This document shows positions 954-36,043 of a stretch of 64,000 nt of DNA, piece by piece. A program made the translations under genes and the position numbers. The first letter of the stretch is position 1, and each line of letters starts with the position of its first letter. Under the pieces are notes generated by a model. The model searched no databases and was not told the origin of the DNA. It saw nothing but the letters and a program-made list of their open reading frames with translations. Source of the DNA: a virus; IMG/VR virus record IMGVR_UViG_3300037608_000032, positions 1 through 64,000 of that record, one strand, 5' to 3'.

Positions 954-1006
954 ATGTAAGCAACTGCTTACCATCTAAAGATAAGCACGATCCGGTTAGA
1001 TTTCAA
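954..1006 (-). promoter_or_regulatory. early sigma70-type promoter with operator and 5' hairpin
   Basis: TTGAAA-17-TATCTT; TAAC-N9-CTTA across spacer; GTAAGC-AGTT-GCTTAC hairpin downstream. Confidence 0.7.
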
Positions 1007-1169
1007 CACCTGATTACACTTATTCCCAAGAATTCTTGTCTATCAACAAAGGTTCCTCCGCGCCTCCAGAACCTGGCAGGTTCCAGACCCACTTTCCTTA
1101 CCACTCCGTAGGGGGTAAACGTGGACGGACGGGCAGGGCTGCGAAGACGACTTGAATCTTGGTCCCGTG

Positions 1170-2252
1170 TCAATCCAGCCGAATTGGCATCACGATGAAC
1201 AGGCACTCGGTCTTGTCCTTGGGCCGAATGACGCACGGTCCGAGAGCTTCACCGAGCTCCATCGTCGCCACGCCGTCATCGAAGGCGTTCAGCGCGTCCA
1301 GCAGAAACGCGGCGTTAAGGCCCATGGTCGCGTCTTCCCCGGTCATCACCACGGGAACCGGGTGCGAGGCCTCGCCGTACTCGACAGACCTGGACGAGGC
1401 CAGAAGTTCCTCGCGGGTGAACTGAACTTTGATGGTCGACGACTTGTCTCGAGCCTCCAACGCCACGCGCTTGAGGGCTTCGACCAAGGCCACGCGGTCA
1501 ACTTCAACTCGGCGAAGGTGAGACTGTGGGAGTACCCGACGGTAGGGCGGGAACTCTCCGTCTACGAGACGGGCGTGGAGCTGGGCTCGGTCGGTCTTGA
1601 CCAGGATCATGTTGGACTTCCCGAACGAGATGGACGCGGGGACCTCGTCAGATCCTACCATCCGCTTGACCTCCTGGAGGGTCTTCCGGGAGACCAAGGT
1701 CTTCGGGGGGATCTTGAAGTCGCCCTGGAACTCGGCTTCGGAGTACGCCATCCGGGACCCGTCGGTACTGACCAGCCGGAGGTGCCCATCCTCGGCCTCA
1801 AAATGGCATCCGTTGATCCCGTATCGGTTGTCTTCGGCCGGGATGCAGAAGTAGACCTGGTCGATCAGGTGGACGAGGCCCTTGACGACCATGGTAGACC
1901 TGGCGACGAACGGAGGCAGCGCCGGGAAGTCCTTGGGATCCAGCCCGAAGGTCTTGAAGTGGGCTGGGCCACAGTCGATGACCATGCGGTAGTTGTCTTC
2001 CTGCTTGACATCAACCGTCCCTGACGGGAGCGATTTCACGACCTGGAAGAAGTGCCGGGCGTCCACCATGATCGACGAAGAATCGAGGCCCACCGTGGCC
2101 GCGCACTTCACGGCCATGGTGATTTCAGAATCGGTGGAGACCACCTCGATCTCGTGCTCGGTTACGCGAAGCAGGGTCTTGGCGTTTTTGCCAATGCCCT
2201 GAATCATGGCGAGCGCGACGACAATATCGGCCTGGGTACAAGTGAATTGCAT
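1170..2252 (-). CDS. dnaN: DNA polymerase III beta sliding clamp
   Basis: 360 aa; STDSEI, DFPALP, RYGING, VSTDGSRMA, LVDGEFPPYRRVLP, GLNAAFLLDAL and C-terminal IVMPIR typical of DnaN. Confidence 0.93.
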   Translation of the reverse strand: MQFTCTQADIVVALAMIQGIGKNAKTLLRVTEHEIEVVSTDSEITMAVKCAATVGLDSSSIMVDARHFFQVVKSLPSGTVDVKQEDNYRMVIDCGPAHFKTFGLDPKDFPALPPFVARSTMVVKGLVHLIDQVYFCIPAEDNRYGINGCHFEAEDGHLRLVSTDGSRMAYSEAEFQGDFKIPPKTLVSRKTLQEVKRMVGSDEVPASISFGKSNMILVKTDRAQLHARLVDGEFPPYRRVLPQSHLRRVEVDRVALVEALKRVALEARDKSSTIKVQFTREELLASSRSVEYGEASHPVPVVMTGEDATMGLNAAFLLDALNAFDDGVATMELGEALGPCVIRPKDKTECLFIVMPIRLD

Positions 2253-2325
2253 GATTTCTCCTCAAGAGAACCGGCTACCCTGAAGACAGGCGAAGAAGGA
2301 GAGAATGCCCGCCCCAGGGTGTCGG

Positions 2326-2643
2326 CTAGTTGGTTGCAGGTGTATAGTCTTTTCGATGAAGTCGAGCCCCGGTCTCGGGGTCAAAGACAATGATGACTCC
2401 GACGTCCAGGCAGAGCCACATCATGTAGCACCAGCTCGGAGGCGAGTGCTTCGACGAGCCAGTCTTCCACTGGCTTATGGATTGCGGGGGGACGCCGAGC
2501 ATGTCGGCGATGTCCTTGTGCGTCCGTTTGGTCTTGCCCTCTTCGGGGGGCAGGGCAAGCCAGAGCTCGACAAGCTGAGACCAGAGCGAGAAAAGGTTAG
2601 GGACAGCGCCGGGCTGGCAGGGGGCGGGCAGGATTCGAGGCAT
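2326..2643 (-). CDS. XRE/Cro-like HTH transcriptional regulator
   Basis: THKDIADMLGVPPQSISQWKTG...P...LCLDVGV; CAGGAG RBS. Confidence 0.8.
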   Translation of the reverse strand: MPRILPAPCQPGAVPNLFSLWSQLVELWLALPPEEGKTKRTHKDIADMLGVPPQSISQWKTGSSKHSPPSWCYMMWLCLDVGVIIVFDPETGARLHRKDYTPATN

Positions 2644-2677
2644 TGAGTTCTCCTGCCCCGTAGTAGCCTCTACCCGT

Positions 2678-3244
2678 CTACCCGAAAAGTGCAACCTGAC
2701 GAGGCGCGGGCTTCTTGCGCCAGTAGCCGAGATCCGTCAGCGCCTGGCGGTGCGCCTTAAGGTCTGCCACGTCGGCCTCGGTCAGGACCGCGAGCATGGC
2801 CTCACGCTGGCGCTTGTCTGCCACGGTGAACAGGCGCTCGATGGTCGCTTCAACGGACTGACGAGCCAGCGACGACCCGACGGACTCGTGAGACCCGAAC
2901 CCCTGGCAAGAGATAGTCACGAGCACCTTCTCGTCAGACGTGCCTTCGTGACCCCGTTTCTTGAACGACCGACGGTAGGTCTGCTGCACGGCCAGGGCTT
3001 GCCACCCGAGCCAGTTCGACAGAAGCTTCTCGGGGTTGCGGACTTCCGAGAACCGCTGAAACTTCGGGAACTGCTCTACGATCCGGGCGATGAAGTCCGA
3101 CCTGGCGTCCTCTCGGTCCGCCTCGTTCTCCATCTTGGCGAAGAACTTGTAAGCGAACCGGTCGATCTGCTTCTGGTGCGACAAGACGAAAGCCCATGCG
3201 TCGGCATGGTCGGGGGTGAGCTTGAGGGGGATCGATGGGGTCAT
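2678..3244 (-). CDS. ECF-type sigma-factor-like protein (region 2 present, region 4 truncated, C-terminal clamp-binding motif)
   Basis: QKQIDRFAYKFF..EADREDARSDFIARIVEQFPKF..LLSNWLGWQA..YRR matches the ECF sigma2 pattern; DKRQREAML resembles the start of region 4 with no HTH after it; ends QVALFG. Confidence 0.65.
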   Translation of the reverse strand: MTPSIPLKLTPDHADAWAFVLSHQKQIDRFAYKFFAKMENEADREDARSDFIARIVEQFPKFQRFSEVRNPEKLLSNWLGWQALAVQQTYRRSFKKRGHEGTSDEKVLVTISCQGFGSHESVGSSLARQSVEATIERLFTVADKRQREAMLAVLTEADVADLKAHRQALTDLGYWRKKPAPRQVALFG

Positions 3245-3702
3245 GCGAACCTCGGAGCAGGTTGGGCGGGGCGGGGGAAGATGTCGATGTCGGGCGGGCA
3301 CCCGTGGATGTCGGTCCAGAGTCTCGTCACGAAGCCCCGGACAACGCCGGAGACGTAGTGCCCGTCCAGCAGGAACCAGATGGCCGCCGACACGTTCCGG
3401 TCTTCGGCGTGGGCCTCGTAGAAGGCCCTGATAGTTAGGTTCAGGTGCGACCAGTTACCGGCCCATCGCCGGAGCTGGTGCGCGACGTTGACCGAGCACC
3501 CTTCGCCACCATGGAGCGCCGTGGTGAGCGCCTCGAACCGGACCTGAAGCGGCTCCCAGGGGAGCGCGCGCAGAGGGGCGAGCTCCAGGTGGAGTGCTAC
3601 CACCTCGGCGATGTCGAGGATCTCGGGCGGCGCGATTGACGCGGGGTGCGTAGGCCGTCGGCGGTTTCGGGGGTCGATCAAGGCTGGGCTCCTTCGGGGC
3701 AA
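3241..3702 (-). CDS. hypothetical protein
   Basis: Fills gap; ATGA overlap with the sigma-like gene; start uncertain. Confidence 0.6.
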   Translation of the reverse strand: MPRRSPALIDPRNRRRPTHPASIAPPEILDIAEVVALHLELAPLRALPWEPLQVRFEALTTALHGGEGCSVNVAHQLRRWAGNWSHLNLTIRAFYEAHAEDRNVSAAIWFLLDGHYVSGVVRGFVTRLWTDIHGCPPDIDIFPRPAQPAPRFA

Positions 3703-3764
3703 CTACACCCGACGAAGAGCCCCTAACCGGTAGCTGGTTAGGGGCAAGTGGAATCCGGTTACTT

Positions 3765-4895
3765 TCAGCGAGCTCGAAGGGATTCCTGCACCTTCCTGGC
3801 GATGTCCGACTGGAACCCGCCGATCTGGTTGGCGACTTCGAGCACCCGATCGTTACCGTCTGCCATGGCCCGGACTTCTCGGACCATCTGCGAGAGGGCG
3901 TTGTTGGCTTCGGCCAACTTCTGGACGTTGGCCAGCCCGGCGGCAGGGACGTTGCTCATCAGCTCGACAGCGGCGTCAAGCACCTTGAGGGCGTCCGCAA
4001 GCGCCGGGGCAACTGCCTTGCACACAAGAGCGTGAACGGCGGGGCGCTCTTCCGGCTTCTGCCAGAGGGCGTCGGTCAGCACCAGCAGGTCGTCGGTCGT
4101 CGCGAAGTCCCTGCCTGCCAGCGCGGCCATAGCCTGCACCAGCTTCGCGAGCTTGCAGAGCCGACGGTCGGAGACGTAGATCCCGAGCTCCGTCGCGATG
4201 GCGTCCTGGAGGTCCAGGAGCGCATCTTCGACGGTCTCGGGGATCGTGACCATGGAGACCGCTTCGCGAGCCGTCTCAAGGTCAGCATGGGTCAAGGTGA
4301 CCGACACGACGGGGCGGCCATGGGACCGAAGGAGCGCCTTCTTGGCGTCCCGGTCCTTGATGGGGTTAACCCACCGGCGCAACATGAACCGGTCATAGAG
4401 GGCATCCAGGGTGTTGTCGGCGGGGAGTTCGTTGCTGGCCCCGATGACGATCTCGAGGGGGCAAGTCTGGCGCGTGGTCCCGTTGTCGAAGGCCCGCTCG
4501 TTCAGGAGGGTCAACAGGGCATTCAGGATCGGCGACCCTGCCTTGAAGATCTCGTCCAAGAAGGCCACCTGAGCGGTGGGGAGGTAGCCCTCTGTCTTCC
4601 GCTCGTAGCGGTCTTCCTGGAGGCCCGTGATCGAGTAGGGCCCGAACAGCTCTTCGGGCATGGTAAATGCGGTCAGCAGGCGGTCGAAGGTCTTGGACCC
4701 GAGCGCACCTGAGACGGCGTTGGTGAGGGCACTCTTGCCCGTTCCTGGGAGCCCGAGAAGGAGGACGTGCTCGCGGGCCAGGAGAGCAACGCAGAGGACC
4801 GTGGCTTCGGCCTGGCGCTCGAAGAAGTTCTTCGAGATGTCGGCTCGAAGGTTGGCGACTTTGACGAGGGCTGCGGTCTGGGCGGGGGTGAACAT
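3765..4895 (-). CDS. MoxR/RavA-family AAA+ ATPase
   Basis: GLPGTGKS Walker A, PEELFGP, FLDEIFKA Walker B, LLNER, GASNELP, ALYDRF. Confidence 0.92.
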   Translation of the reverse strand: MFTPAQTAALVKVANLRADISKNFFERQAEATVLCVALLAREHVLLLGLPGTGKSALTNAVSGALGSKTFDRLLTAFTMPEELFGPYSITGLQEDRYERKTEGYLPTAQVAFLDEIFKAGSPILNALLTLLNERAFDNGTTRQTCPLEIVIGASNELPADNTLDALYDRFMLRRWVNPIKDRDAKKALLRSHGRPVVSVTLTHADLETAREAVSMVTIPETVEDALLDLQDAIATELGIYVSDRRLCKLAKLVQAMAALAGRDFATTDDLLVLTDALWQKPEERPAVHALVCKAVAPALADALKVLDAAVELMSNVPAAGLANVQKLAEANNALSQMVREVRAMADGNDRVLEVANQIGGFQSDIARKVQESLRAR

Positions 4896-4920
4896 CGGGG
4901 CTCCTTGCTGGGCGGGCGGG

Positions 4921-4978
4921 TCAAGAAGCAACTGCTCTTGATGTCATAAGTATAACTTGAATCACGTTAGACTGTCAA
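4921..4978 (-). promoter_or_regulatory. early sigma70-type promoter with operator and 5' hairpin
   Basis: TTGACA-18-TATACT; TAAC-gtgattcaa-GTTA; TCAAGAGC-AGTT-GCTTCTTGA hairpin. Confidence 0.85.
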
Positions 4979-5207
4979 CGGGTATCCAAGAAGATTCTCG
5001 CACCTGTAGCGATTTATTTTCATCGACCGGGAGCACCTCCGACACCGGGAAGGCCGTCCCAGCGTACCCAGGACGAAGCGCCTGCGAGTCGAGGAACACG
5101 CTGTAGACCTCGGGCTCGCGGTAGTCGGGCGGGGCCATGCGGACGTAGTTGATCGAGCCGGGCTGGCCCTTGGCTTGAACTCGGGCGCCGGGGAGAAGAT
5201 GAGACAC
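4962..5207 (-). CDS. hypothetical protein (81 aa)
   Basis: AGGAGG RBS before GTG. Confidence 0.7.
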   Translation of the reverse strand: MSHLLPGARVQAKGQPGSINYVRMAPPDYREPEVYSVFLDSQALRPGYAGTAFPVSEVLPVDENKSLQVRESSWIPVDSLT

Positions 5208-5215
5208 AGGACCTC

Positions 5216-6772
5216 CTACCGTCTGACAGGAATGACCTTGGACGCGGCCTTTTCCGCATCTTCGGCCTTGTCGATGTCTATCGATTCATCGCAGAAGCTC
5301 CGCACCGCCGGGGAGATGGACCCGCCACCTACCGTCATTCCGAAGACCCGCAGGCCGAGGGCCGCCTTGGCGGCCTTGACCATGTCGAGCACCTTCGGCG
5401 ATGCGTCAGCGCACCCGTCAGTGATGAAAAGCAAGTCCGCGCGGGGCTGGCTCTCCAGATACTCCAGGCCCCAGAACAAGGGCGCGTTGAAGTCCGTCCC
5501 GCCCCGTGCGTGCCGGGTGCAGAGTTCAAGGGCCAGGTCTATGACCTTGCCCCAAGGCTTCGCGGTCGCTCCCTTCGGCGATGTCGAGGGGAGGGTCTCA
5601 ACCTTGCCGTTGGTCCGGGCAATCCAGGCGTCAGAGATCCCGTGGTTGAACATGACCACGGCGACTTCGCGCTTCTCTTTCTGCCCGAGCTGGAGGCACG
5701 CGAGAATCGCGGCCTTTGCCCAGGTCTCGCCAGCGCCTTTCATGCTGCCCGACTCGTCAGCGAGGATGCAGATCGGGCCCTTGCCCTGCGGGGTCTTACC
5801 TTCGACCTTGTACTGGGGGAGGGACCTTTCAGCGAGGCCCTTCATGACGAGCACCTTCAGCGCCGGGTTGCCGAGCAATGCGAGCTGAGAGGGAAGCACG
5901 CGGGGAAGGTCGTTACCAAGCGTGACACCCGAGATGAGCCCGCAGGCGCGGGGGTCCTTGCGGGCCTCGGTGCGCTCGGCAAGGCGAACGAGCTTCCCGG
6001 CCTTGCGAAGGACCGCGCGAAGGTTCGGGTTGCGGAGCAAAGTCTGGGCAAGCTCCAACCGCCTGGAGTCCTTCTGCTCATGCGTCGGAGGCGCATAGGC
6101 GCTTCCAGGTGCGAGCGACTCCATGGCCTCGCGGGCTTCCGAGACCTGCTTCGATGCCCTGTCACAAGCGCCACGGAGAGCAGCTCGTAGCTGCTGACCG
6201 GCCTTGCCGAGTTGGTCAGAACGGCGCTGGCCTTGACCGTCGCCTTCTTCGTTGCCATCGCCGGGGGTGGGCTGGCCCTCACCAGCACCGGAGCCCTGGC
6301 CCGGCTGCTGGGCTTGCTGTTCGGCTTCCTGGTCCACCGACTTGAGAAGTTCGGGGAGCCTTCCGGCGATGGCGGAAAGAACCTCTTGCGCTGCCATCGC
6401 CGAGAAGTCGGGATCGCCCTTGACAGCCTCACGAAGAGACGACCACTCCGGCAGCTCGTCGGCGATGGCGTGCGCGGACGGTGCCCAGCCCTTCGCGTCA
6501 GCGACCTTCTCGGGGTCGTTGTACAACCGGGCGAAGGTCTCAGCTCCGAAGGTCTCGGAGTCGGTCTTGACCGCCTGCATGGCGGCCTCGCGCTCTTCCA
6601 CGGTCGCCAGTTTCCGCATGGTGGGGCGATGGTGCTCGCGCACCGCCTCCGCCACATGGGAGACCTGCGAGGCCATCGCCGGGAGCCGAGCGTCGAAGAG
6701 GAACCGCTCCCACCTGGACGGGGTGTAGGCCAGGTCGGTGGAAGCCTGAAAATGAAAGGCGGGGGCGCTCAC
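5216..6772 (-). CDS. VWA-domain protein (ViaA-like partner of MoxR ATPase)
   Basis: MIDAS motifs DESGSM, GGTDF, FITDG; GNDLPRVLPSQL; KGPICI. Confidence 0.9.
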   Translation of the reverse strand: MSAPAFHFQASTDLAYTPSRWERFLFDARLPAMASQVSHVAEAVREHHRPTMRKLATVEEREAAMQAVKTDSETFGAETFARLYNDPEKVADAKGWAPSAHAIADELPEWSSLREAVKGDPDFSAMAAQEVLSAIAGRLPELLKSVDQEAEQQAQQPGQGSGAGEGQPTPGDGNEEGDGQGQRRSDQLGKAGQQLRAALRGACDRASKQVSEAREAMESLAPGSAYAPPTHEQKDSRRLELAQTLLRNPNLRAVLRKAGKLVRLAERTEARKDPRACGLISGVTLGNDLPRVLPSQLALLGNPALKVLVMKGLAERSLPQYKVEGKTPQGKGPICILADESGSMKGAGETWAKAAILACLQLGQKEKREVAVVMFNHGISDAWIARTNGKVETLPSTSPKGATAKPWGKVIDLALELCTRHARGGTDFNAPLFWGLEYLESQPRADLLFITDGCADASPKVLDMVKAAKAALGLRVFGMTVGGGSISPAVRSFCDESIDIDKAEDAEKAASKVIPVRR

Positions 6773-7647
6773 TTCGACACCGCCAGGAGGCGCATGGCCT
6801 CGTCCTGGCACTCGGTGACCTTGGCTCGGAGGTCCTGCAACGAGACCTCGAGGGTCTTCTCGTAGAGGTCCGCGAGCCCGAGGAGGGTCGCGAGCTGGCC
6901 CAGGACGTTGGCCTGGGAGTCCGTGCGGATCTTTCTCGAAGTCGTCCGCCAGTCTTCGAGCTGCTTCTCGACATCGAGGAGCTGACCGAGGACGTGGTCT
7001 TGGACGCCAGCCCCGACGCCTTCGCGGCTATCCCCGTCGTTCTCCACCATGCAGAGGTGGAACTTGCACCCGCCCAACTGGCCCACGATCCTCTTGAGGC
7101 GCTTCACGATGTCCAGCGAGGCCAGCGGGGCGAAGTAGATCCCGCCCTGGCGACGGAGGGAGATAGCCGACGCGGCTTCGAGCTGAGGCACGAGCACCGA
7201 GGGACGAAGGAACCTGTGATCGAGGTACTTCAGGAAGTCGTCGGCCGACTTGATGAAGCCCTGGCCTACCTCGCTCGGGTACGCGTTGACCCACTCCCTG
7301 CTGACCGTGTCGTAGCACAGGGTCTCGGTCTGGCCCCACGCTACCTCACGAGACCCCTCCCGGCGATGCTGGAGGATACCGACGTACACCCTACCGCCGT
7401 CGATGGCCGTGACTTCGGCCTTGTAGCGGTCGTTGTTCCCGCGACCGGTAGCCCAATTCCCAGCGGCCTTGCGGATGGCCGACACGGGGTCGATGTCGGG
7501 GACCGAGATATCCGTGAGACCTTCGGACGCGAGCACGTCTCGAAGGTGCTCTGGCGTGACCTGGCTGGCATCAAGGTCCCACCAACAGAAGGTCCCCATG
7601 CGGGGGTCGATGGAGGTGACGTCGGGGGAGGTGGAAGTGAAGGGCAT
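6769..7647 (-). CDS. hypothetical protein of the type found beside phage/ICE MoxR-VWA pairs
   Basis: CAGGAG RBS; GTFCWWDL, LRRQGGIYFAP, C-terminal coiled coil; coupled to the VWA gene. Confidence 0.75.
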   Translation of the reverse strand: MPFTSTSPDVTSIDPRMGTFCWWDLDASQVTPEHLRDVLASEGLTDISVPDIDPVSAIRKAAGNWATGRGNNDRYKAEVTAIDGGRVYVGILQHRREGSREVAWGQTETLCYDTVSREWVNAYPSEVGQGFIKSADDFLKYLDHRFLRPSVLVPQLEAASAISLRRQGGIYFAPLASLDIVKRLKRIVGQLGGCKFHLCMVENDGDSREGVGAGVQDHVLGQLLDVEKQLEDWRTTSRKIRTDSQANVLGQLATLLGLADLYEKTLEVSLQDLRAKVTECQDEAMRLLAVSK

Positions 7648-7685
7648 GATGACTCCTGATAGGGGAAGGTGGTAGCAGGTGAGAG

Positions 7686-7925
7686 CTACTTGGTGACGAC
7701 CGTGCAACGGACGGTCTTGAAGGTGCCCTTGCCAGCCCCGCAGAAGACCTCGGTGCCGGGCTCGACATCGACGACGGCGTCGAGGACTTCGTCTCCCCGA
7801 ACACGGGGGATCGAGAGGAACCGAGCAGAGTCGCCAGAGCCGATGCGAGCCCACCAATTCGGCTTGCCATTGGCGTGGAATCCAGTGTTGCTCATGCGGG
7901 AGGTAGTGACGAGGTGGCTGGACAT
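7686..7925 (-). CDS. hypothetical protein (79 aa)
   Basis: AAGGAG RBS; first gene after promoter. Confidence 0.75.
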   Translation of the reverse strand: MSSHLVTTSRMSNTGFHANGKPNWWARIGSGDSARFLSIPRVRGDEVLDAVVDVEPGTEVFCGAGKGTFKTVRCTVVTK

Positions 7926-7950
7926 TTTAGGCTCCTTCGGGCTGGGGTTT

Positions 7951-8009
7951 CATGAAGAGCAACCGCTTTTCATGCTCTAACAGTAACACGATTCAGGTTA
8001 GCCTGTCAC
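7951..8009 (-). promoter_or_regulatory. early promoter with operator and 5' hairpin
   Basis: GTGACA-18-TACTGT; TAAC-ctgaatcgt-GTTA; CATGAAAAGC-GGTT-GCTCTTCATG hairpin. Confidence 0.75.
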
Positions 8010-9684
8010 TAGTTATCTGCACCTGTTCGCACTTTTCTTTCACGACCCTCTTTTTTCTCGCCTTCGGAGGTTCGGAGCACCAGACCAACCTCGCGACGCA
8101 CGCCATGCCCTGCTTGTCCACCCGTGGGCCTGGCCGGCGCACGTACCGACCGGCGCTATGGATGCTCGGGTCTGCATGGCCTCCGACTACGCCGTGGGCG
8201 TGGAGCGCGTCCAGGACCACGCGGTCAAGGGACGCGAGCATCCGCTGGACGTGAGGATCGGCGTAGAAGGCGCGTGGGTCCCACCTTCCTTGACGGAGCT
8301 TCACGACGACCTGCACGCCCGTTCCTGACGTCCTGACCATGGCCATCGTACCCGACAAGACCGGGTGGTTTACCAGGATGGCCTGGACTTCTTGGGCAGC
8401 TTCTGCAAGGTGCTTCCACTCGGGCATGGTCTCGATATCGTCGATGTCAACGCCGACCCATTCCGTGTAGACGGGCACGAAGCCGGTAGGCTGAAGGATG
8501 TTCATGCTCTCACGACCGGACGAAAACTCGCGGACTCCGGTGAACCCGTGCAGGTCCATGGAGACGTACAGGTCGGGAAGAACGGCTTTCGGACGGCAGA
8601 AAAACATCATCGTGTTCGTGGCCGCCAAGGCACCGTAGTAGACCTTCTCGTTCTTGGCGCGGCCGTCGGCATAGTGGAGAAGGTCCGTCAACGAGGTAGC
8701 AGCGGAAAAAGCCCGGTGGAACCCACGTCTTACAGACTCGTTCTCGCCACCGTAGTGCTTGCCCATCGTGAACCCGTACCCTTGGGGGCGGACTACATAG
8801 TCAGGACTGGAGATGTCCAAGGGGTCATCGTAGAAGGCCAGTCCTGACGGCTTGCCGAGTACCATCGGGGCCGGCCCGGGGTCCCCAGCTTCAAGGGAGC
8901 GGTCAACGAGAAAGAGCGCATTCGACGGGGTAGAAACAGGCACGTCCCAATAAGACCCCCTGTGGGGTAGACCGGGGGTAGCGATGCCCCCTGGGTCTCC
9001 TGACTCACAGAGTCTTAGACAGGCGGGACTGGCCTTGACTGAGACGACGGGCTGGAAGAGGACGGCAAGGTCTTCAAGGACCTTGGCCTTGCCGATGATG
9101 GTCTCACACGAGAAGCAGAAGACGTACCCGGTCTCTTGGTTGACCACGGCGTTCGGGGAGTGGCCTTCGTGGTTCGGGCATCGGATGAAGACCTTCTGGC
9201 CCTTGCGATGTCCAGGGACCTGGACTGCGGGGCCGTAGCACCGGTGGTCCTGGACTGGGGGAGCGTGCCCTTGACCTGCGAGGGCTTCGAGCACCTGCTC
9301 GGCAATGGCATGCGCTTCGGGGGTGACTCGGTAGTGGGTGCCCCTACCTTGCCCGGGGGCGAGGTCTCGAACCGGGTAGCCGAGTCGGGCAGCTTCAGGG
9401 GTGGTGACTGGCTCGGCTCCGAGTAGAGCGTAGACGTCGGGGAAGACCTGGCGGGCGATGTCGCGGGAGATGGTCCCGTGCGGGACGAAATAGCCAGCGC
9501 ATCGCTCGGAGATGTAGGAGCCATCGGACGCGAGAAAGGCGCGGACTACGTGGTCGTGCAGGATGACGATGGCAGCGCGGAGTCGGGTGGGCGTGAAGCC
9601 CAGCAGTTCTTCAACGAGGAGGTCAGCCCAGGTGGGGGCCTCGACTCGGGCGAGCGCAGCGCCGGTCAACGCCGATCCTTGCAT
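7993..9684 (-). CDS. AEP/RepB-like primase protein with CHC2 zinc finger
   Basis: CPNH...CFSC zinc finger; GVDIDD (DxD), RTSGTGVQ (motif II variant), ADPSIHSAGRYVRRPG. Confidence 0.6.
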   Translation of the reverse strand: MQGSALTGAALARVEAPTWADLLVEELLGFTPTRLRAAIVILHDHVVRAFLASDGSYISERCAGYFVPHGTISRDIARQVFPDVYALLGAEPVTTPEAARLGYPVRDLAPGQGRGTHYRVTPEAHAIAEQVLEALAGQGHAPPVQDHRCYGPAVQVPGHRKGQKVFIRCPNHEGHSPNAVVNQETGYVFCFSCETIIGKAKVLEDLAVLFQPVVSVKASPACLRLCESGDPGGIATPGLPHRGSYWDVPVSTPSNALFLVDRSLEAGDPGPAPMVLGKPSGLAFYDDPLDISSPDYVVRPQGYGFTMGKHYGGENESVRRGFHRAFSAATSLTDLLHYADGRAKNEKVYYGALAATNTMMFFCRPKAVLPDLYVSMDLHGFTGVREFSSGRESMNILQPTGFVPVYTEWVGVDIDDIETMPEWKHLAEAAQEVQAILVNHPVLSGTMAMVRTSGTGVQVVVKLRQGRWDPRAFYADPHVQRMLASLDRVVLDALHAHGVVGGHADPSIHSAGRYVRRPGPRVDKQGMACVARLVWCSEPPKARKKRVVKEKCEQVQITSDRLT

Positions 9685-9967
9685 GAAAAGGATGGACGGG
9701 TAAGCCGGGTGCGGTTAGAATCGGGGTGGTTGACCATTGCGACTGGTTGACTCGGGTGATCAGGTGGCCCGTCTTTCTACCGGTTGAGTCCCGATAGAAG
9801 TGAGTGCAGCCTGGACGGTTCTGGTGTACACCCCTCCGAGGCCCGGCGTCAAGGAGGGGCTACACCTTTTCGAGCGAGGCGAGGGAGATGACGGGGGAGC
9901 TACTACATCGGGAGCTGGCTATAGTGGCTTGCACCTGTAGAGACCTTTCCGGCGATGTAGGTACCAG

Positions 9968-27257: not shown

Positions 27258-27296
27258 GGGCTACTACTTCGGTGAACCCAACCCCAGGAGTGGAGC

Positions 27297-28818: not shown

Positions 28819-29421
28819 ATGCCCCGTGCGAAGAAGAAGACCGACCCCGTCAAGGAAGCCCTTGCTCAAGCCGCGCCTGTTTGGCGGCTGGCGAAGATTG
28901 CCGAGCTACATCAGGACCCGACGAACGCCAGGAAGCACGGGGACAGGAACCGTGAAGTAGTCCGGGCTTCATTGGAGACCTTCGGGCAGGTCGAGAACCT
29001 CGTAGTCGAGCGGGGCACCGGAAAGGTGCTCGGTGGCAACTGCCGGCTTGACGAGTTGATCGCCCTCGGCCGTGACGAGGTGATGATCGCCGAAGTGGAT
29101 GTTCACGGACCGGCGGCGACGAAGCTGGCACTGGTCCTGAATCGGTCTGCGGAGCTGGCCGAGTGGGACCCCGTTGGGCTGGCCGACGTGGTGCGGGAGC
29201 TTCAAGGGAGCTTCGACGGGTTGGCGGACATCGGGTGGGATCCGAAGGAGCTTGAGAAGATCGTCGGCAGGCAGGAGGCCCCGATAGTCACTGGGAACGC
29301 TCCGGTAACGGACCTTGAGCAGCGGTTCGACATCGTCGTGGAGTGCGGCGATTACAAGGAGCAGGAGGCTCTACTGGCTCGACTACTGACGGAAGGTGTG
29401 AAATGCCGACCGATCATGTAG
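28819..29421 (+). CDS. ParB-like protein (phage DNA-modification-associated type)
   Basis: DPTNARKH, SLETFGQ, LGGNCR, LNRSAELAEWD; C-terminal IVVEC..EQEALL..L..EG.KC. Confidence 0.85.
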   Translation: MPRAKKKTDPVKEALAQAAPVWRLAKIAELHQDPTNARKHGDRNREVVRASLETFGQVENLVVERGTGKVLGGNCRLDELIALGRDEVMIAEVDVHGPAATKLALVLNRSAELAEWDPVGLADVVRELQGSFDGLADIGWDPKELEKIVGRQEAPIVTGNAPVTDLEQRFDIVVECGDYKEQEALLARLLTEGVKCRPIM

Positions 29422-30491
29422 TCCTTGAAGTGCAGGTGGAGAGAACGCCCCGCGTGCTCCGGGTTGAATCCATGTTCGACGTTCCGGCTTCGGAGAAGTC
29501 CCGACTTGAACTCGACATCGGGATGCCGATTGAAGATCGGCCGTGGTCGGTTGGGCTGATCGTCGGGCCGTCAGGTGCGGGAAAGTCCACTGTAGGTGCA
29601 AGGATCTTTCAGCGACCGGTCAGTCTGGAGTGGTCAGGCTCGAAGGCGTTGGTGGATTCCTTCGACCAGCGGTTCACGATCCAGGACATCGCTGAAGCGC
29701 TCGCGTCGGTTGGCCTGTCTTCGATCCCTTCCTGGTTGCGGCCTTTCCGGGTGCTTTCGACGGGTGAGCAGTTCCGAGCCATGATGGCGCGGACGATTCT
29801 GGAGACCGATGGCCTGGTAGTCGTGGACGAGTTCACGTCGGTTGTTGACCGGCAAGTCGCACAGGTGGCGAGTCATGCCGTGCAGAAGTACGTTCGTAAA
29901 ACCGGGCGGCAGTTCGTGGCTATCGGGTGTCACTACGACGTGATCGACTGGCTCCAACCAGACTGGATCTACGAGCCCCATGTGAATCGCTTCAACTGGA
30001 GGTCACTTCAACGACACCCAGAATTGCAGCTCGAAATCCATAAAGTTCACGGGTCCGACTACTGGCCCTTGTTTGGGCGTTATCACTATATGAGCGGCGA
30101 ATTGCACAAGGCCGCCCGGTGTTTCGTGTTGACCCTGGACGGTCAACCTGTGGCGTTCAACGCCTACATGCACCAGGCCCATGCCCAGACGAAGAACATA
30201 AAGTTCGGGCATCGGTTGGTAGTGCTGCCCGATTATCAAGGGCTTGGCATTGGACCAAGGTTTGATGAGTGGCTGGGAGAATACCTGTATGCACGCGGGT
30301 TTCGATATCACAATCACACAGCTAATCCGGCCATGATTAGATATTATTCAAAGTCCGTCCGGTGGCGGGCATTGAATCAAACACTGGGAATAACCGGGAC
30401 AAGTGCCAACAAATCGTTGAAAATAAAAGCAAAGCTAATTCGTAGGCTGTCTCTTCGTTCGTTCGCATATTCGCCGAAGGTAACACAATGA
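29403..30491 (+). CDS. ABC ATPase-GNAT acyltransferase fusion
   Basis: GPSGAGKS, LSTGE, VVDEF, CHYD; then YHYM and RLVVLPDYQGLGIG (acyl-CoA motif A). Confidence 0.92.
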   Translation: MPTDHVVLEVQVERTPRVLRVESMFDVPASEKSRLELDIGMPIEDRPWSVGLIVGPSGAGKSTVGARIFQRPVSLEWSGSKALVDSFDQRFTIQDIAEALASVGLSSIPSWLRPFRVLSTGEQFRAMMARTILETDGLVVVDEFTSVVDRQVAQVASHAVQKYVRKTGRQFVAIGCHYDVIDWLQPDWIYEPHVNRFNWRSLQRHPELQLEIHKVHGSDYWPLFGRYHYMSGELHKAARCFVLTLDGQPVAFNAYMHQAHAQTKNIKFGHRLVVLPDYQGLGIGPRFDEWLGEYLYARGFRYHNHTANPAMIRYYSKSVRWRALNQTLGITGTSANKSLKIKAKLIRRLSLRSFAYSPKVTQ

Positions 30492-30835
30492 AAACCTTTG
30501 TATCAGGCAAGGTCCACGATGTCAGAGTCACCGACAAGCATATTCGATATGTCGGGTCCATCTCGCTATCCAGAAACCTGATTGCAGCGGCGGGCATGGA
30601 GCCCTACGAGCAGGTCCATGTCATCAACCTCAACAACGGCAACCGGTGGGTGACGTATATCCTGCCCGTGGACGAAGACGGCGTGTTCACCTTGAACGGC
30701 GGCGGGGCTCGCCTCGGTGAAATCGGGGATGTCTGCGTGCTGATTACCTATGCCGCGTCCGAGCACTTCGACGGAGCGAAGGTGGTGTTCTGCACGGCGA
30801 AGAACGAGATCGACCATGAAACCACCTATCCTTGA
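30488..30835 (+). CDS. panD: aspartate 1-decarboxylase (pyruvoyl-dependent)
   Basis: GKVH, YVG/SI self-cleavage site, NNGNRWVTY, LNGGGAR, GD. Confidence 0.92.
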   Translation: MKTFVSGKVHDVRVTDKHIRYVGSISLSRNLIAAAGMEPYEQVHVINLNNGNRWVTYILPVDEDGVFTLNGGGARLGEIGDVCVLITYAASEHFDGAKVVFCTAKNEIDHETTYP

Positions 30836-31511
30836 GATTGGCCGCTATCTGGTACCCGCCTATGCCGGGATGGTGCTCGCGGAGCAGGGTTTCCAGGTAG
30901 AAAAGTGGTTGTACCTGCAAGACCCTATTCAGGGGCTTCTTCACGGAGACGAGCTTTGGCGGTGGGTCAACGCGGGGAAGGTGCTCGTCAACCACGTAGC
31001 GGACGAAGTGCTAAACCTGTCGGTAGGAGCCTTCTCCGGCGTTGTCGAGAATCTCTCGGAGTCGTGGTGGTTGGCGCATGGCGTGGACCCTGATGAACAG
31101 GCGCGACGGCTTGACGTGCCCTGGGTCTCGTTTCGGCCACAAGTAGGTGAGCGGTCCTTCGACGTTATCGCTCAGGCGCAGGCGTGGGCCGGTGTAGCTC
31201 CCTGGGTGCCTTTCTACATTGGAGACACCTTGGGGGGCCTGTGGGTCGCCTACAAGCTCGTGTCCATGCTGGCGCTCGGGAAGACAGGCCGCGTGGTCAT
31301 CCGTCATGCCGATTGCTTGGCGAAGATGGTGGAAGGGGAGTTGACCCTTCCGAGGCCGTCGGGTCCAGTGCCATGGGATATCGAGGTCTATCGACTCGGG
31401 GAGCAAGGGGCCGAAGTCGAGTATCGGGGTAACATCGTAAAGGAGCCTCTACGGGATGACGCTTGGCGTCGGGAGCACCTGACAACAGTCAGCGGGCGGA
31501 TTGTCGTCTGA
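30816..31511 (+). CDS. minimal family III (CaiB/BaiF) CoA-transferase
   Basis: ILEIGRYLVPAYAGMVLAEQG..V.K, DP, NAGK, VVEN, FDVIAQA, catalytic IGD..GGL; only about 230 aa. Confidence 0.85.
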   Translation: MKPPILEIGRYLVPAYAGMVLAEQGFQVEKWLYLQDPIQGLLHGDELWRWVNAGKVLVNHVADEVLNLSVGAFSGVVENLSESWWLAHGVDPDEQARRLDVPWVSFRPQVGERSFDVIAQAQAWAGVAPWVPFYIGDTLGGLWVAYKLVSMLALGKTGRVVIRHADCLAKMVEGELTLPRPSGPVPWDIEVYRLGEQGAEVEYRGNIVKEPLRDDAWRREHLTTVSGRIVV

Positions 31512-32748
31512 CGCTTTCGTTCTGGGCGATCATGGTGCCCAGGGGGCCGGTCTCTTCCTCGATACGTGCTCGGAGTTCTGGTGAGATCCGCCAGAGCGAC
31601 AACTTGCCCGCACATGCAACGGGCTTCTTGAGTGCCACGGCGTAGGTAACGGGAAGACATACGGGACCTTCTGCCCACTCGCGATCCGTCGTAACTTGTT
31701 CAACGGGGACGCCTTCGCCGAGAATAACAACACCGATGATAGCGGACGTGGGTAGTAAGCCTATGCCGTCGGTGAGCTTCGGGTCGGCGTCTACGTCGAA
31801 AGACGCGGACGCATGGATGAAGACCCAGCGCGAGCCCTTGATGCCGAGTCCTGTGGATCGATTCTCCCAGGTCTTGCGACCCGAGACGAGCAACGAAGCC
31901 CAGGGCTGCTTGACAGACAGGGCACGAAGGTCTCCAGCCCATCCGTCGTCCGCCTCGGTGGGCATGTCCAACCCAACGACGGCCTTGATGGACTCCTTCC
32001 ACTTCACGAGGGGGTCGTCACGGAGGCGCAAGTACAGCGCCTTCACCCGGTCGTCAGACTGCGAGGCTTCCAGGCGACGGAGGCCCTCAAGGTGGGTGGC
32101 GTCGGCGAAGCCGTTGTGCTTCAGCCGTGCTGCACCCTGGTTCAGTTTCCCGATCCAGATCGAATCGGTCACGAAGGGGGACAAGATGCTTACAAGTGCG
32201 AGCACCTTTTCCTCTTGGACTTCGAGCAACGGCTCGCAGGACACCGATGTCCTGAATCCCTGGGAGTAGGCGTATTCGAGGGCCATCAAGCGCTCCTCGA
32301 AGCTGGGAGCGCCGGGCTCCCACCACTTGAGGATGACCGACGAAGACGACCCGATCGTGAAGCGGAACATGATTTTGGACTTGTACTGGGCAAGCTCGGT
32401 GCAGACCCGAGCTATCACGTCAAGGTGGGGCTTGGAGACTACCAGGACTTCGTTCCCGGCCTCAAGGAGGTTCTTCAACCCCTGGATAGTCCAGTTGGCC
32501 AGCGCCGGGGAGATATCGTGGGTGGTGGGATACATGACCGTGCCCTGGTAGCGGCGCTTTGTTTTTGCCATTCCCGGGGTGCTTGGATGTTCGTTGGACC
32601 ACTGACCGGGCTCACATCGCCGGAAGCGGTAGGCCATGGCTGATCCATAGCAATAGCAACAAGAATTTGAGCAGCCCCGCACGGTATTTACCGAGTTTGA
32701 GGCCCATTCTCTGGTTCCGGAAACAGCGATAGGTCTGGTTTCTTCCAT
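31489..32748 (-). CDS. radical SAM (SPL/DUF5131-like)-ASCH fusion
   Basis: GCSNSCCYCY, WEPGAPSFEERL, SCEPLL; C-terminal RALSVKQPWA..GRKTWENR..IHAS. Confidence 0.85.
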   Translation of the reverse strand: MEETRPIAVSGTREWASNSVNTVRGCSNSCCYCYGSAMAYRFRRCEPGQWSNEHPSTPGMAKTKRRYQGTVMYPTTHDISPALANWTIQGLKNLLEAGNEVLVVSKPHLDVIARVCTELAQYKSKIMFRFTIGSSSSVILKWWEPGAPSFEERLMALEYAYSQGFRTSVSCEPLLEVQEEKVLALVSILSPFVTDSIWIGKLNQGAARLKHNGFADATHLEGLRRLEASQSDDRVKALYLRLRDDPLVKWKESIKAVVGLDMPTEADDGWAGDLRALSVKQPWASLLVSGRKTWENRSTGLGIKGSRWVFIHASASFDVDADPKLTDGIGLLPTSAIIGVVILGEGVPVEQVTTDREWAEGPVCLPVTYAVALKKPVACAGKLSLWRISPELRARIEEETGPLGTMIAQNESVRRQSAR

Positions 32749-33290
32749 CCGCTTTTTCTTCCTTGTCCTACGTTATGACCGTTTATGTATTTTCGTGGTC
32801 TTTGATGCTCATCGTATTTTAGAAATGTAGATCCGCATCCACAGGCGCACGGAACGATCTCGTTGATCTTGGACTTCTTTCCTTTTCTCCAATGGCCGCC
32901 GTCGATGTACTTTCGTAGTCTTCCGGACTCATCGAACTTAAAAAAAGTAGCTCCGCAGCCACAAGCACATGAGACGAGTTCGTTAGGTTCGTCTGGAAGT
33001 TGACGCACCTTGCCGCTGTGTCGATGGTGAACCTTGTGCGCCCATATGCTGCTGACAATCTCGATGTTCTCTGGCCGGTTATCCGTTCGGTCTTCGTTCT
33101 TGTGATGCACAAGTTCGGTGGGGAGAATCTTTCTACCAAGGATCTGCTCTGCAACGATTCTGTGCTCGTAGGCGTACCCGTTGATGTGGGCGAGGTGATG
33201 GCCGTCTTCGACTTTGACCAGCACGTATCCGTTGCTTCCGACAAGACGTCCGCCTTTCCAGTTCGGGTTCTTCTCTCTTTTGAGGCCCAT
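32688..33290 (-). CDS. HNH endonuclease
   Basis: NPNWKGG, YEHRIVAE..VHHKNEDRTDNRPENI; two CACGCG repeats; AT-rich. Confidence 0.88.
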   Translation of the reverse strand: MGLKREKNPNWKGGRLVGSNGYVLVKVEDGHHLAHINGYAYEHRIVAEQILGRKILPTELVHHKNEDRTDNRPENIEIVSSIWAHKVHHRHSGKVRQLPDEPNELVSCACGCGATFFKFDESGRLRKYIDGGHWRKGKKSKINEIVPCACGCGSTFLKYDEHQRPRKYINGHNVGQGRKSGWKKPDLSLFPEPENGPQTR

Positions 33291-33366
33291 GGTTGACTCC
33301 TTGGTTGATGTGCATCTATGTGATAGCAGCATCTACCTATGGAATCAACAATAAAGTTGATGCGTG

Positions 33367-33564
33367 TTACTCGTTCCTCTTGAGTCTGACCTCAGCCAGA
33401 ATCTCGTCCGCCTCGACACGGGCCAGGCGCTTGGCCTCGCGCACCGTGTTGGCGACGTGGAAGATGGAGAGGGGCCAGAAGACCTGGCCGTCTTTAGACA
33501 TGGTGCCGGCCATCGCCATGGGGCGGCCGGTGGTGGTGCGTTCGACTTTGTAGACGTACTTCAT
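33367..33564 (-). CDS. hypothetical protein (65 aa)
   Basis: AAGGAG RBS. Confidence 0.7.
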   Translation of the reverse strand: MKYVYKVERTTTGRPMAMAGTMSKDGQVFWPLSIFHVANTVREAKRLARVEADEILAEVRLKRNE

Positions 33565-33643
33565 GGGGAAGCTCCTTGGAGGTTCGTTCCTACCGCGTTA
33601 CTCACCCGACATCGCCGGGTGAGCAGCTCGCTGGGGACGACTA

Positions 33644-34123
33644 CTAGTCTTTGTCTTCCTTGATGGCTTCGACTTCGTCGGCGTACTTGCCCTCGATGTA
33701 CTCGACCGACCTCAGGCCCTGCTCGCCGGTGTCGCGGCGCTGGGCCCAGGTATCAATGATGCGCTCGCAACCGCAGTGCAGGCACACTTCGTGGATGTGG
33801 ACCCCCCCCCCGGAGCCAAAGACCCCGGGGTTCTCTTCGCACCCGCCGACGATGTCGACGGGGGACTGCCAGTCGTGGTCTTCGTCGTCGGTGCAGTCGG
33901 GCTCTTCGGGGTCGGTCGTGACGACTACCGTGTCGACGACAACGTCTTCGTAGCCGTCTTCCGCTTCGATGATCTGGACGTCGGTCCAGGTGGTCTCGGT
34001 GCTGGTCTCCCATTTGGATGCGTCACCCTCTTCGAGGGCGGCCTCCCTGGCGGCTTCGATGGTGGGGTAATCATCGCCAACTACCTCGCCGTCGATTCGA
34101 AGGGAGTAAGTGCACTGTGTCAT
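33644..34123 (-). CDS. acidic hypothetical protein
   Basis: AAGGA RBS; very acidic; C..HDW..CLHC; first gene after promoter. Confidence 0.8.
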   Translation of the reverse strand: MTQCTYSLRIDGEVVGDDYPTIEAAREAALEEGDASKWETSTETTWTDVQIIEAEDGYEDVVVDTVVVTTDPEEPDCTDDEDHDWQSPVDIVGGCEENPGVFGSGGGVHIHEVCLHCGCERIIDTWAQRRDTGEQGLRSVEYIEGKYADEVEAIKEDKD

Positions 34124-34152
34124 GTTGTCTTCCTTGCTGGGGTGGGGTGGAG

Positions 34153-34212
34153 GCATGAACAACAACCGCTGTTCATGCACTAACTATAACTCGATTCACG
34201 TTAGACTGTCAA
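34153..34212 (-). promoter_or_regulatory. early sigma70-type promoter with operator and 5' hairpin
   Basis: TTGACA-18-TATAGT; TAAC-gtgaatcga-GTTA; GCATGAACAGC-GGTT-GTTGTTCATGC hairpin. Confidence 0.85.
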
Positions 34213-35185
34213 CGGAATAACTCTTAGATACTTCTTTTTCCTTCGGGGATCGGACGGGCTTCTGGCTCGCCATCGCAGAGCACAGCGCCGTGGCCAGGGC
34301 GTGGGCGTTGAAGGCCCGGCGGGACTCGATACCAAGGAGCAGCTCGGCGGTGCGGACGTCACCAGACGCCATGGCGCGAACCAGGGACACGGACCAAGAC
34401 CCTTCCGGCGATGTCGGGTCAACCGGTGTGGGCTCGTTCACCGGGGGCTCGGGAGCGTTCACGGGGGCCGGGTTCTCGTTCACCGGGATCGGCTCGTTCA
34501 GTGAACCAGCGAGGGCCTCGTTCACGAGGTCTTCGGCCTGGACGCTCGCCAGGATGTCGAGGGCCTCCTCAAGCTCCGGGGGCATCGCCGGGGAGATGGT
34601 CTCCACGATGAGCGGGCGCACGATTTCGGGTGATGTCCTCACCAGTTCTTCGGTGTCCTCCCACCCAGCCGTCCAGTCTCGAGCTTGGTCCACGTCGTAC
34701 TCGCGGGGGACGTCTCGGGCAGGGACGCCTTGGGCGAAAGCTCCACGGCCTGTCATGTAGGCGGACGACCGAGCGCCGGTCTCGCGGGGGAGCTTTTCGG
34801 GCTCTCCGTGGGCCCTGCACGTCGGGACCTTGACGACCTTGGGCTCCGGGCCCTGGTCCTTGACCGTTTCGACCACGAAGCCGTCCTCTCGGTATTCGGC
34901 CGTCGTGACCTGGACGGGGCGGGGCTTCCTGGCGGGCCTGGGCGTGTCTGGTACTCCGAGCATCGCCGGGAGTCGGTGGGGCTTCCAGGTCTCGATGACC
35001 TCCTCGGGGACTTCGAGGACTGCGATACGAAGCCGGAGCTGGTCCACGCGAGCCTGTCGGGGGACCTTGGCGGATTCTTCCAGGGCCAGGGCTTGTTTGA
35101 GGGTGGGGACGTCAGAGACGCCCTTGATCAGCTCACGGGAGCCGATGGACAAGGGGAGGCGGAAGATTTCGCGCGCGGTGGGCAT
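34196..35185 (-). CDS. hypothetical protein with Rmf-like segment
   Basis: CAGGAG RBS; AYMTGRGAFAQG..P....ARDWTAGW. Confidence 0.75.
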   Translation of the reverse strand: MPTAREIFRLPLSIGSRELIKGVSDVPTLKQALALEESAKVPRQARVDQLRLRIAVLEVPEEVIETWKPHRLPAMLGVPDTPRPARKPRPVQVTTAEYREDGFVVETVKDQGPEPKVVKVPTCRAHGEPEKLPRETGARSSAYMTGRGAFAQGVPARDVPREYDVDQARDWTAGWEDTEELVRTSPEIVRPLIVETISPAMPPELEEALDILASVQAEDLVNEALAGSLNEPIPVNENPAPVNAPEPPVNEPTPVDPTSPEGSWSVSLVRAMASGDVRTAELLLGIESRRAFNAHALATALCSAMASQKPVRSPKEKEVSKSYSVDSLT

Positions 35186-35187
35186 GG

Positions 35188-35970
35188 TTACTCCTGATAC
35201 TCGGGTCGTCTCCAGAGACGGGAGACGTACTCGATGTCAGAGGACCTCGCTCCGGCAATAGTCGTTTCTCCGCAGCCCGTGGGATGTCCGAGGGCATCGT
35301 GAGCGCGGCTGTAGGTAGCCTCGTCTACCCACATCGAGTCGAGTCTGAGGACGGTCCTCTCGCGGAGGGTCAGTTTTCGCCAGCCCAGATCGCGGGCAAG
35401 GCGGTAGAGCGCGCGGGAGGCGGCCCGGTTGGCCTCGGAAAGCGTGGGGCAATTCTCGGGGAGCCACGTCCCGGAGTCGGCGAGAGCAGTGACCTCATCC
35501 ATCGGAAGCATGGCGTAGTACCTCCGCCAGTGCCACATTACGATCCGAGGGAGACAGTACCTGTCCAGATCGCTCCGGAGCCGAGCGTACTCGCCCTTCC
35601 ATCCACGCATCCCTGGACGGGAGATGGAGATGGAGATCGATGCGTCGGTCTCAGTGACCGCCACCTCGGCGTGAGCGAGATAGCGGGTCTCGCTCTGCTG
35701 CATGGCCCGGACCGTGATGCGGTCCCGCTCCGTGCCGTCGAAATGGCCGGCCTTTCGGACCACGCTGATCACAAGGTCGTGATCAGCCGGGAGATCTGAG
35801 CCCCGATCATCGATAAGCACGTCCACAAGCTTACCGGGTACGCCCCGGAGGACGTAGCGTCGGCAGCGGCAGCTCTTCGAGAGCCAGACGCGGTCCTCGG
35901 TCGGCTCCAAGGGGAGCACGGGGAGTGCGCCCACTGTGGACGTGAGGATGTTCTTTGGGCGGATAGTCAT
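35188..35970 (-). CDS. hypothetical protein
   Basis: AAGGAG RBS; 260 aa. Confidence 0.75.
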   Translation of the reverse strand: MTIRPKNILTSTVGALPVLPLEPTEDRVWLSKSCRCRRYVLRGVPGKLVDVLIDDRGSDLPADHDLVISVVRKAGHFDGTERDRITVRAMQQSETRYLAHAEVAVTETDASISISISRPGMRGWKGEYARLRSDLDRYCLPRIVMWHWRRYYAMLPMDEVTALADSGTWLPENCPTLSEANRAASRALYRLARDLGWRKLTLRERTVLRLDSMWVDEATYSRAHDALGHPTGCGETTIAGARSSDIEYVSRLWRRPEYQE

Positions 35971-35995
35971 TGAAACTCCTTCTGGGTTCGGGCAT

Positions 35996-36043
35996 CAACA
36001 GGCAACTGCCTGTCATCAACATAGTAACATGAACCGGGTTAGT
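35996..36043 (-). promoter_or_regulatory. early promoter with operator and 5' hairpin
   Basis: -10 TACTAT; TAAC-ccggttcat-GTTA; ACAGGC-AGTT-GCCTGT hairpin; weak -35. Confidence 0.7.

Follow-up and report, generated by a model that had tools for sequence, protein, structure and literature searches.

Five leftward promoter-leader cassettes, each with a short hairpin directly after the -10 box, occur in the IMG/VR virus record IMGVR_UViG_3300037608_000032, a contig of 75,042 base pairs (bp) with a G+C content of ~63%, whose first 64 kb (hereafter the window) formed the main stretch of DNA analysed. Comparison of the five copies indicates that the stem-loop is genuine and under selection, with a one-to-one link to a private class of promoter, and we tentatively read it as a 5'-terminal leader element of a repeated promoter/leader cassette that would shield the messages of five leftward, non-structural gene units from 5'-end-dependent decay. 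Each cassette spans ~85–90 bp and opens with a -35 box (absent from the fifth) and an invariant CTAAC; exactly 11 nucleotides (nt) further on comes a TAYNNT -10 box, then the hairpin, a C-rich stretch that includes CCCAG, the Shine-Dalgarno sequence (SD) AAGGA(G) and an ATG, with a mean column identity of 66% in an alignment of the five. The CCCAG motif and the SD recur in all five leaders, the latter 13–17 nt beyond the end of the stem. Most genes of the five units match no known family in PHROGs or Pfam. The cassettes, with the open reading frames (ORFs) that they precede and the lengths of these in amino acids (aa), are as follows.

923-1007, minus strand: cassette P1, with -35 box TTGAAA (1001-1006), CTAAC (995-999), -10 box TATCTT (978-983), CCCAG (939-943), SD AAGGA (933-937) and ATG (923-925) of a 62-aa ORF (737-925).
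4893-4978, minus strand: cassette P2, with -35 box TTGACA (4973-4978), CTAAC (4966-4970), -10 box TATACT (4949-4954), CCCAG (4908-4912), SD (4902-4906) and ATG (4893-4895) of a MoxR-type AAA ATPase gene (3765-4895).
7923-8009, minus strand: cassette P3, with -35 box GTGACA (8004-8009), CTAAC (7997-8001), -10 box TACTGT (7980-7985), CCCAG (7942-7946), SD (7933-7937) and ATG (7923-7925) of a 79-aa ORF (7686-7925).
34121-34212, minus strand: cassette P4, with -35 box TTGACA (34207-34212), CTAAC (34200-34204), -10 box TATAGT (34183-34188), CCCAG (34137-34141), SD AAGGA (34131-34135) and ATG (34121-34123) of a 159-aa ORF (33644-34123).
35968-36050, minus strand: cassette P5, with no recognisable -35 box (GCACGC at that position, 36045-36050), CTAAC (36038-36042), -10 box TACTAT (36021-36026), CCCAG (35982-35986), SD (35977-35981) and ATG (35968-35970) of a 260-aa ORF (35188-35970).

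The initial annotation had placed a hairpin after the -10 box of each of these five leftward promoters, and all of its minus-strand sequences read exactly as it gave them, the last stem extending to 35996-36015. The loop lies 12, 15, 15, 15 and 13 nt beyond the last T of the -10 box in P1 to P5, respectively. Because sigma-70 promoters usually start transcription at the seventh base past the -10 hexamer, a predicted start could be assigned to each site; energies (kcal/mol) and covariance-model scores are given with the hairpins below.

956-971, minus strand: hairpin 1, GTAAGC-AGTT-GCTTAC, 6 bp, centroid energy -7.2, 29.2 bits, predicted start 971 on the first stem base.
4921-4941, minus strand: hairpin 2, TCAAGAGC-AGTT-GCtTCTTGA, 8 bp with one bulged T, 27.0 bits, predicted start 4942, 1 nt before the stem.
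7951-7974, minus strand: hairpin 3, CATGAAaAGC-GGTT-GCTcTTCATG, 9 bp plus one A-C mismatch, minimum free energy (MFE) fold identical to the centroid (-11.2), 31.7 bits, predicted start 7973, 1 nt inside the stem.
34153-34178, minus strand: hairpin 4, GCATGAACAGC-GGTT-GTTGTTCATGC, 11 bp including one G-U, centroid energy -15.8, 31.3 bits, predicted start 34176, 2 nt inside the stem.
35996-36015, minus strand: hairpin 5, TGACAGGC-AGTT-GCCTGTTG, 6 Watson-Crick pairs (35998-36013) plus two G-U, centroid energy -10.6, 31.4 bits, predicted start 36014, 1 base inside the extended stem and 1 base before the six-pair core.

The stems differ in sequence while their pairing is kept, as the initial annotation had observed. 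In an ungapped alignment of 28 columns from the five sequences, in which 10 pairs give 50 cells, standard pairs fill 82% of cells, compared with 30–62% when the 3' partner is slid by 1–3 columns. Both sides have changed in 5 of the 10 pairs (6 cells), and the observed covariation score was reached by none of 500 shuffles; allowing a one-base bulge at site 2 regains its outer five pairs. The 8-nt tip GC-RGTT-GY, by comparison, varies only at R and Y, through A/G and C/T transitions, while the stems have diverged, which bears out the earlier description of a conserved apex. A loop change takes one mutation and a stem-pair change takes two, yet the tip is the more conserved, which suggests that the tip itself is under selection.

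None of the parts of the element is exceptional by itself. The octamer GCRGTTGY is not enriched in the window (11 copies, 9.25 expected) and its other six sites lack stems, and hairpins of at least 5 bp with an RGTT loop are likewise near expectation (10, 7.8 expected). The signal is that promoter class, position and tip go together one-to-one. When the five copies were built into a covariance model, it scored those five at 27–32 bits, as it must by construction; the antisense of site 3 came next with 20.0 bits, followed by a match of 15.4 bits, and the model found no sixth copy in the 75-kb genome. A 15-bp hairpin with a GGTT loop at genome positions 72648-72681 was considered as a further leader hairpin and rejected, as it sits in a collagen-like G-x-y coding repeat (72632-72802).

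The promoter pattern CTAAC-N11-TAYNNT has five matches in the window, all at the hairpin sites, with 0.05 expected and none of 100 shuffles reaching five; the pattern was derived from the same five sites, so that its enrichment is partly circular, yet it is far beyond chance. The last 11 kb of the genome contain no match. A sigma-70 consensus scan calls three of the five promoters (P2 and P4 at 11/12 matches, P1 at 9/12), while P3 (GTGACA / TACTGT) and P5 (no -35 box) fail the consensus filter. Across five genome-wide scans, P2 and P4 are the only sites in the 75-kb genome at 11/12, all others being at 9/12 or below. Since these are the best sigma-70 matches genome-wide, the promoters of this class are the best candidates for entry of the host polymerase, and it is solely from these likely entry points that we infer an early timing of the five units.

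The predicted start falls at most 2 nt from the 5' foot of the stem at all five sites, so the hairpin would be 5'-terminal, with essentially no single-stranded 5' tail. It is present in both MFE and centroid folds at every site, with the SD mostly open, and the single hairpin (16–26 nt) is followed in the predicted folds by an unstructured C-rich spacer. Pairing of the loop or the 3' arm with the region before the SD was also considered but set aside, being visible by eye at only three of the five sites. The initial annotation had counted a G-U pair in favour of RNA; this argument does not survive, as the opposite strand would show a G-U pair where site 3 has its A-C mismatch, and the two strands do not differ in summed folding energy (-50.9 kcal/mol for the sense strand, -50.1 kcal/mol for the antisense). 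The case for RNA is instead that the hairpin lies inside the region transcribed from a complete promoter, in a fixed orientation and in a compact unit with the ribosome site, and the asymmetric centre, together with arms that vary from site to site in a compensated way, makes an operator in duplex DNA unlikely.

Close relatives of the phage were not recovered. Searches by tblastn gave at most ~21% identity for the terminase and no match for the portal protein, megablast of 30000-38000 against phages gave no match, and blastn with one cassette returned only chance-level matches (E ≥1). Exact 17-mers and degenerate promoter-plus-tip patterns were absent from both viral_contigs and genome_contigs. 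The relatives of the MoxR-type ATPase of the P2 unit in viral_contigs, metagenome_contigs and genome_contigs share at most 48% identity. A covariance-model and Rfam search, which the initial annotation had proposed, found the five genomic copies and no others: 34 related loci (309,175 bases) gave nothing significant (best 16.6 bits, E 0.24), and Rfam 15 gave no match in the window at gathering scores. These 34 are the loci scanned of 40 fetched, two near-duplicates (L003 of L002 and L006 of L005) and L038–L041 being left out. Relaxing the Rfam threshold to E ≤5 around the five sites gave only two unrelated chance matches elsewhere. A non-exhaustive literature search, including passages of PMC10914365, found no description of the element.

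The distant ATPase relatives do preserve parts of the arrangement. In one clade the promoter, (C)TAAC-N9-10-GTTATAAT, is kept and there is no hairpin. In a second clade, of seven loci, a hairpin with differing loops and covarying stems starts 5–6 nt beyond the -10 box, 4 of its 13 pairs having changed on both sides. Hairpins close to the start are thus a recurrent feature of this broad phage group, but the RGUU tip is private to this genome. The distant relatives listed first below (36–44% ATPase identity, 46–54% G+C) present a (C)TAAC-N9-10-(TG)TTATAAT promoter without a good -35 box. This points to a function of the CTAAC box, at about -26, in the promoters of this phage group, possibly as an activator site. 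Leaders of the second clade were observed to hold two hairpins before the ATPase gene, the first at the predicted start and the second resembling GCCGT-GGTTTA-ACGGC, with a run of U after it that immediately precedes the ribosome site; this second hairpin may be an attenuator. The sites are as follows.

L005 at 5887; L002 at 5885 and 7200; L012; L013; L009/L033: CTAAC-type promoters upstream of ATPase homologues.
L023 at 464-534; L024 at 9874-9943; L025 at 2129-2198; L026; L027; L028; L034: two-hairpin leaders.

Hairpins in the 5' untranslated regions of ompA and papA are reportedly 5'-terminal stem-loop stabilisers of messenger RNA (mRNA). As here, a short hairpin at the 5' end stands upstream of an accessible ribosome site, and their function is said to depend on the near-absence of unpaired 5' nucleotides. 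The predicted geometry of the five leaders is that of such bacterial stabilisers, so the decay-protection reading, which the initial annotation had offered as an alternative to antitermination, fits, insofar as every predicted start lies within 2 nt of a hairpin foot. The five elements would then be copies of one expression cassette in which host RNA polymerase starts at the foot of the palindrome, and the five non-structural transcripts would each begin with a 6–11-bp hairpin and essentially no unpaired 5' nucleotides. A triphosphate end that is base-paired serves poorly as a substrate both for the pyrophosphohydrolase RppH and for RNase E or RNase J attack that depends on the 5' end; Bacillus subtilis RppH is described as requiring at least two unpaired 5' nucleotides in the decay review PMC3997798. 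These phage messages would outlast unprotected RNA, with the ribosome site left free by the hairpin. The ompA and papA elements belong to single host genes and share no loop, whereas here one fixed-tip hairpin type heads five phage units, for which stabilisation of the same kind may be supposed.

Several observations weigh against decay protection as the whole explanation. The tip is the block with the highest conservation although a stabiliser could do without a conserved loop, and c(RGUU)g is, to our knowledge, not among the specially stable tetraloops; pure stability would leave the tip constraint unexplained, and some factor may also read the tip. The single hairpins are unexceptional against shuffles (z -0.42 to -2.28, with centroid energies of -7.2 to -15.8 kcal/mol), and the thermodynamics are compatible with a hairpin at the DNA level as well as in RNA. 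An exact or one-mismatch copy of the 7-mer CAGGTGC lies just upstream of four of the five promoters, and if this is a promoter, some transcripts carry the hairpin internally. No RNA runs are listed as matching 500-9900. The statistics are also thin, coming from five paralogous copies in one genome with no relative that carries the element.

A possible, if doubtful, alternative is a protein-recognised RNA tag, in which a phage or host factor would bind the c-RGUU-g tip and control the five leaders jointly, for instance through processive antitermination of a nut-like kind, by shutting off or activating translation, or by targeted cleavage. A loop and closing pairs that stay invariant above a lower stem free to covary are typical of protein-bound hairpins, the loop points the same way with respect to transcription at all five sites, and most unit genes are family-less, so that they could include an RNA-binding protein that has escaped recognition. 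On the other hand, no RNA-binding domain was detected in the 12 unit proteins scanned at E ≤1, there is neither a consistent boxA-like element nor a convincing intrinsic terminator inside the units, and the distant ATPase-unit relatives have no hairpin or other loops. It is equally doubtful, although conceivable, that one factor would read the tip on the nascent 5' end of every host-polymerase-driven transcript and so switch the whole set, whether by stabilising, silencing or antiterminating it. Phages must tell their own early messages from host RNA while taking over or degrading host transcripts, and such a tag could be one case of a wider, undescribed phage habit of placing private hairpins on early messages.

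The initial annotation had named a boxB/put-like antitermination signal as its first example of such recognition, and membership in that family is not supported. The boxB element is a short stem with a GNRA-like pentaloop, the lambda nut site combines boxA with boxB, and HK022 put consists of two adjacent stem-loops of ~70 nt in total. They resemble the present element in being cis-acting hairpins in the leaders of early phage transcripts, and recognition is of their loop, as it may be here. Here, however, the loop is a tetraloop (AGUU or GGUU) in all five copies, on stems of 6–11 bp, and each leader has a single hairpin, unlike the pair of put; moreover, nut and put sites lie tens to hundreds of nt downstream, whereas the five copies here are at the predicted +1. 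Matches to a boxA-like pattern with at most one mismatch number 8 in the window (18.3 expected) and are not consistent in the leaders, the sole sense-strand leader match being the 3' arm of hairpin 3. Among the proteins of the five units there is no family match to an N-like protein; a 146-aa ORF (3241-3681) has RNRRR near its N-terminus, which by itself is not evidence for one. Terminator-like sites in 1-11000 number three (6.5 expected), none convincingly inside a unit, Rho-dependent sites not being predictable, and in 29000-40000 one U-rich terminator closes the P4 unit (32947-32962, minus strand). Under the tag reading, RGUU would be a promoter-adjacent, boxA-less counterpart of nut/boxB.

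The arrangement also recalls the promoter-early stem-loop (PeSL) of the T4-type phages RB49 and phi1, in which, according to PMC2839356, a dispersed, strong sigma-70-like early promoter and a conserved stem-loop head small non-structural units. The repeated sigma-70-like promoter module is present here in five copies, with P2 and P4 at 11/12. The PeSL stem-loop is described there as a G/C-tract terminator or attenuator for upstream transcription (PMC2839356) and stands outside its own promoter's transcript, whereas the present hairpin follows the -10 box, lies inside the transcript and has an RGUU tip. It also lacks a U tract, and its lower stems are A/U-rich.

If either decay protection or a tag were true, the cassettes would provide a compact, portable element of ~20–25 nt with a defined promoter for setting mRNA lifetime, as well as a handle for finding the reading factor in a phage lineage without a cultured member. 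At present their value is that of a well-defined test case: five copies in one uncultured genome, described by sequence analysis only.

We consider it unlikely that the palindrome, at about +1 to +25, acts as DNA, extruded or bound at the promoter, serving a regulator of initiation as a structure-specific site or a phage polymerase as a hairpin promoter in the manner of N4. In its favour, the two strands fold equally well, the distance from the -10 box (12–15 nt) is tighter than RNA alone would need, and the outermost 1–2 pairs at P3 and P4 lie upstream of the predicted start and would exist in DNA only. The early promoters of N4 share this logic, with a conserved GC-rich centre and variable inverted repeats in which pairing is kept, again at early units (PMC4496689). 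According to the same source, the N4 hairpin forms in DNA upstream of the start, where a GC-rich heptamer centred at -11 holds the 3-nt loop, and depends on a giant virion RNA polymerase (PMC4496689); the loop here is 4 nt in all five copies, which also have a complete sigma-70-type promoter upstream of them. PHROG and Pfam matches revealed neither a virion nor a T7-like RNA polymerase, ORFs of at least 300 aa contain no T7-like motif B or C pattern (R-x3-K-x6-8-YG or HDS), and the only DxDGD motif is in the primase. A dimeric operator in duplex DNA, for its part, would not require the asymmetric centre and the compensated arm differences.

A co-transcriptional role is very unlikely in our judgement. 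The nascent hairpin might aid sigma release or promoter escape, or set a pause near the ribosome site, coupling transcription to the first ribosome, and the constrained distances on both of its sides (12–15 nt from -10 box to loop, 13–17 nt from stem end to SD) would suit such roles, which do not normally need a conserved loop sequence.

The least probable explanation is that there is no separate function and the cassettes are recent duplicates or gene-conversion copies, similar over their whole 85–90 bp, with a hitch-hiking palindrome or the codons of leaderless mini-ORFs, since the stems have diverged with compensated changes, unlike neutral copies or coding constraint, and the mini-ORFs differ in length and, at site 2, in frame and are preceded by no SD. 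These mini-ORFs open with an ATG in or just before the 5' arm of all five hairpins; four share the register M-x-S/G-S/G-C, and three stop after 7 codons at the TGA of the 3' arm. They are probably a by-product of the CATG...CATG palindrome.

950-975, 4918-4948, 7950-7973, 34120-34176 and 35960-36012, all minus strand: mini-ORF regions.

The 7-mer CAGGTGC is itself strongly over-represented in this genome, with 60 copies in 75 kb (31 plus, 29 minus) compared with 12.3 ± 3.9 expected. It extends to a consensus of ~24 nt, with A at -9 (40/60), T at -6 (29/60), C at +13 (31/60) and T at +14 (43/60). By rough gene calls, 22 copies are sense within genes, 21 antisense and 17 intergenic, and several stand 30–55 nt before late-gene start codons. 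The motif is not enriched in the relatives. Only 11 of 107 CAGGTG sites have at least 5 pairs, and a sister hairpin family was rejected on this basis; the motif could serve a phage factor as a promoter, or it could be a site bound by a protein. Examples are as follows.

9931-9937, minus strand: CAGGTGC.
8019-8025, minus strand: CAGGTGC.
5000-5006, minus strand: CAGGTGC.
44766-44772, plus strand: CAGGTGC.
51136-51142, plus strand: CAGGTGC.
61034-61040, plus strand: CAGGTGC.

The remaining gene content, which includes a tape measure protein, points to a tailed phage, probably a siphovirus. PHROGs and Pfam scans identified the large terminase, portal, major head protein and head-tail adaptor among the virion genes, and a plus-strand replication block encodes helicases, a primase/helicase, an exonuclease, a Sak4-like protein and methyltransferases; the window contains no tRNA genes. 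The tape measure protein is 1389 aa long and is followed by a 1897-aa protein without a detectable family. Genome size and large ORFs had prompted consideration of an N4-like phage, which was discarded because the large ORFs are these two. The stretch 500-9900 is contained in three DNA runs labelled groundwater metagenome, possibly the source of the assembly.

Other features of the window were recorded alongside the cassettes. The region 1170-3244 gives a sliding-clamp match (PHROG 947, E 2e-57), with a 188-aa neighbour that has no significant Pfam match. Between the divergent minus- and plus-strand blocks, ~1 kb at 9700-10700 has no ORF with gene-like codon-position G+C and contains a strong CAGGTGC...ACTATAG copy at 9937; a role in control or as an origin is possible for this region. 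An island of lower G+C (57%, compared with ~63%) at 30000-34000 encodes a 419-aa protein (31489-32748, minus strand) with a CxxxCxxC motif typical of radical SAM enzymes and holds another promoter-like site, of a different type, at ~33369. Near-perfect 60-nt tandem repeats occupy the right contig end, and a pentapeptide-repeat ORF of ~350 aa crosses the contig junction (window 1-488, minus strand, and genome 74478-75042); with one part at each end of the contig, it shows the assembly to be circularly permuted.

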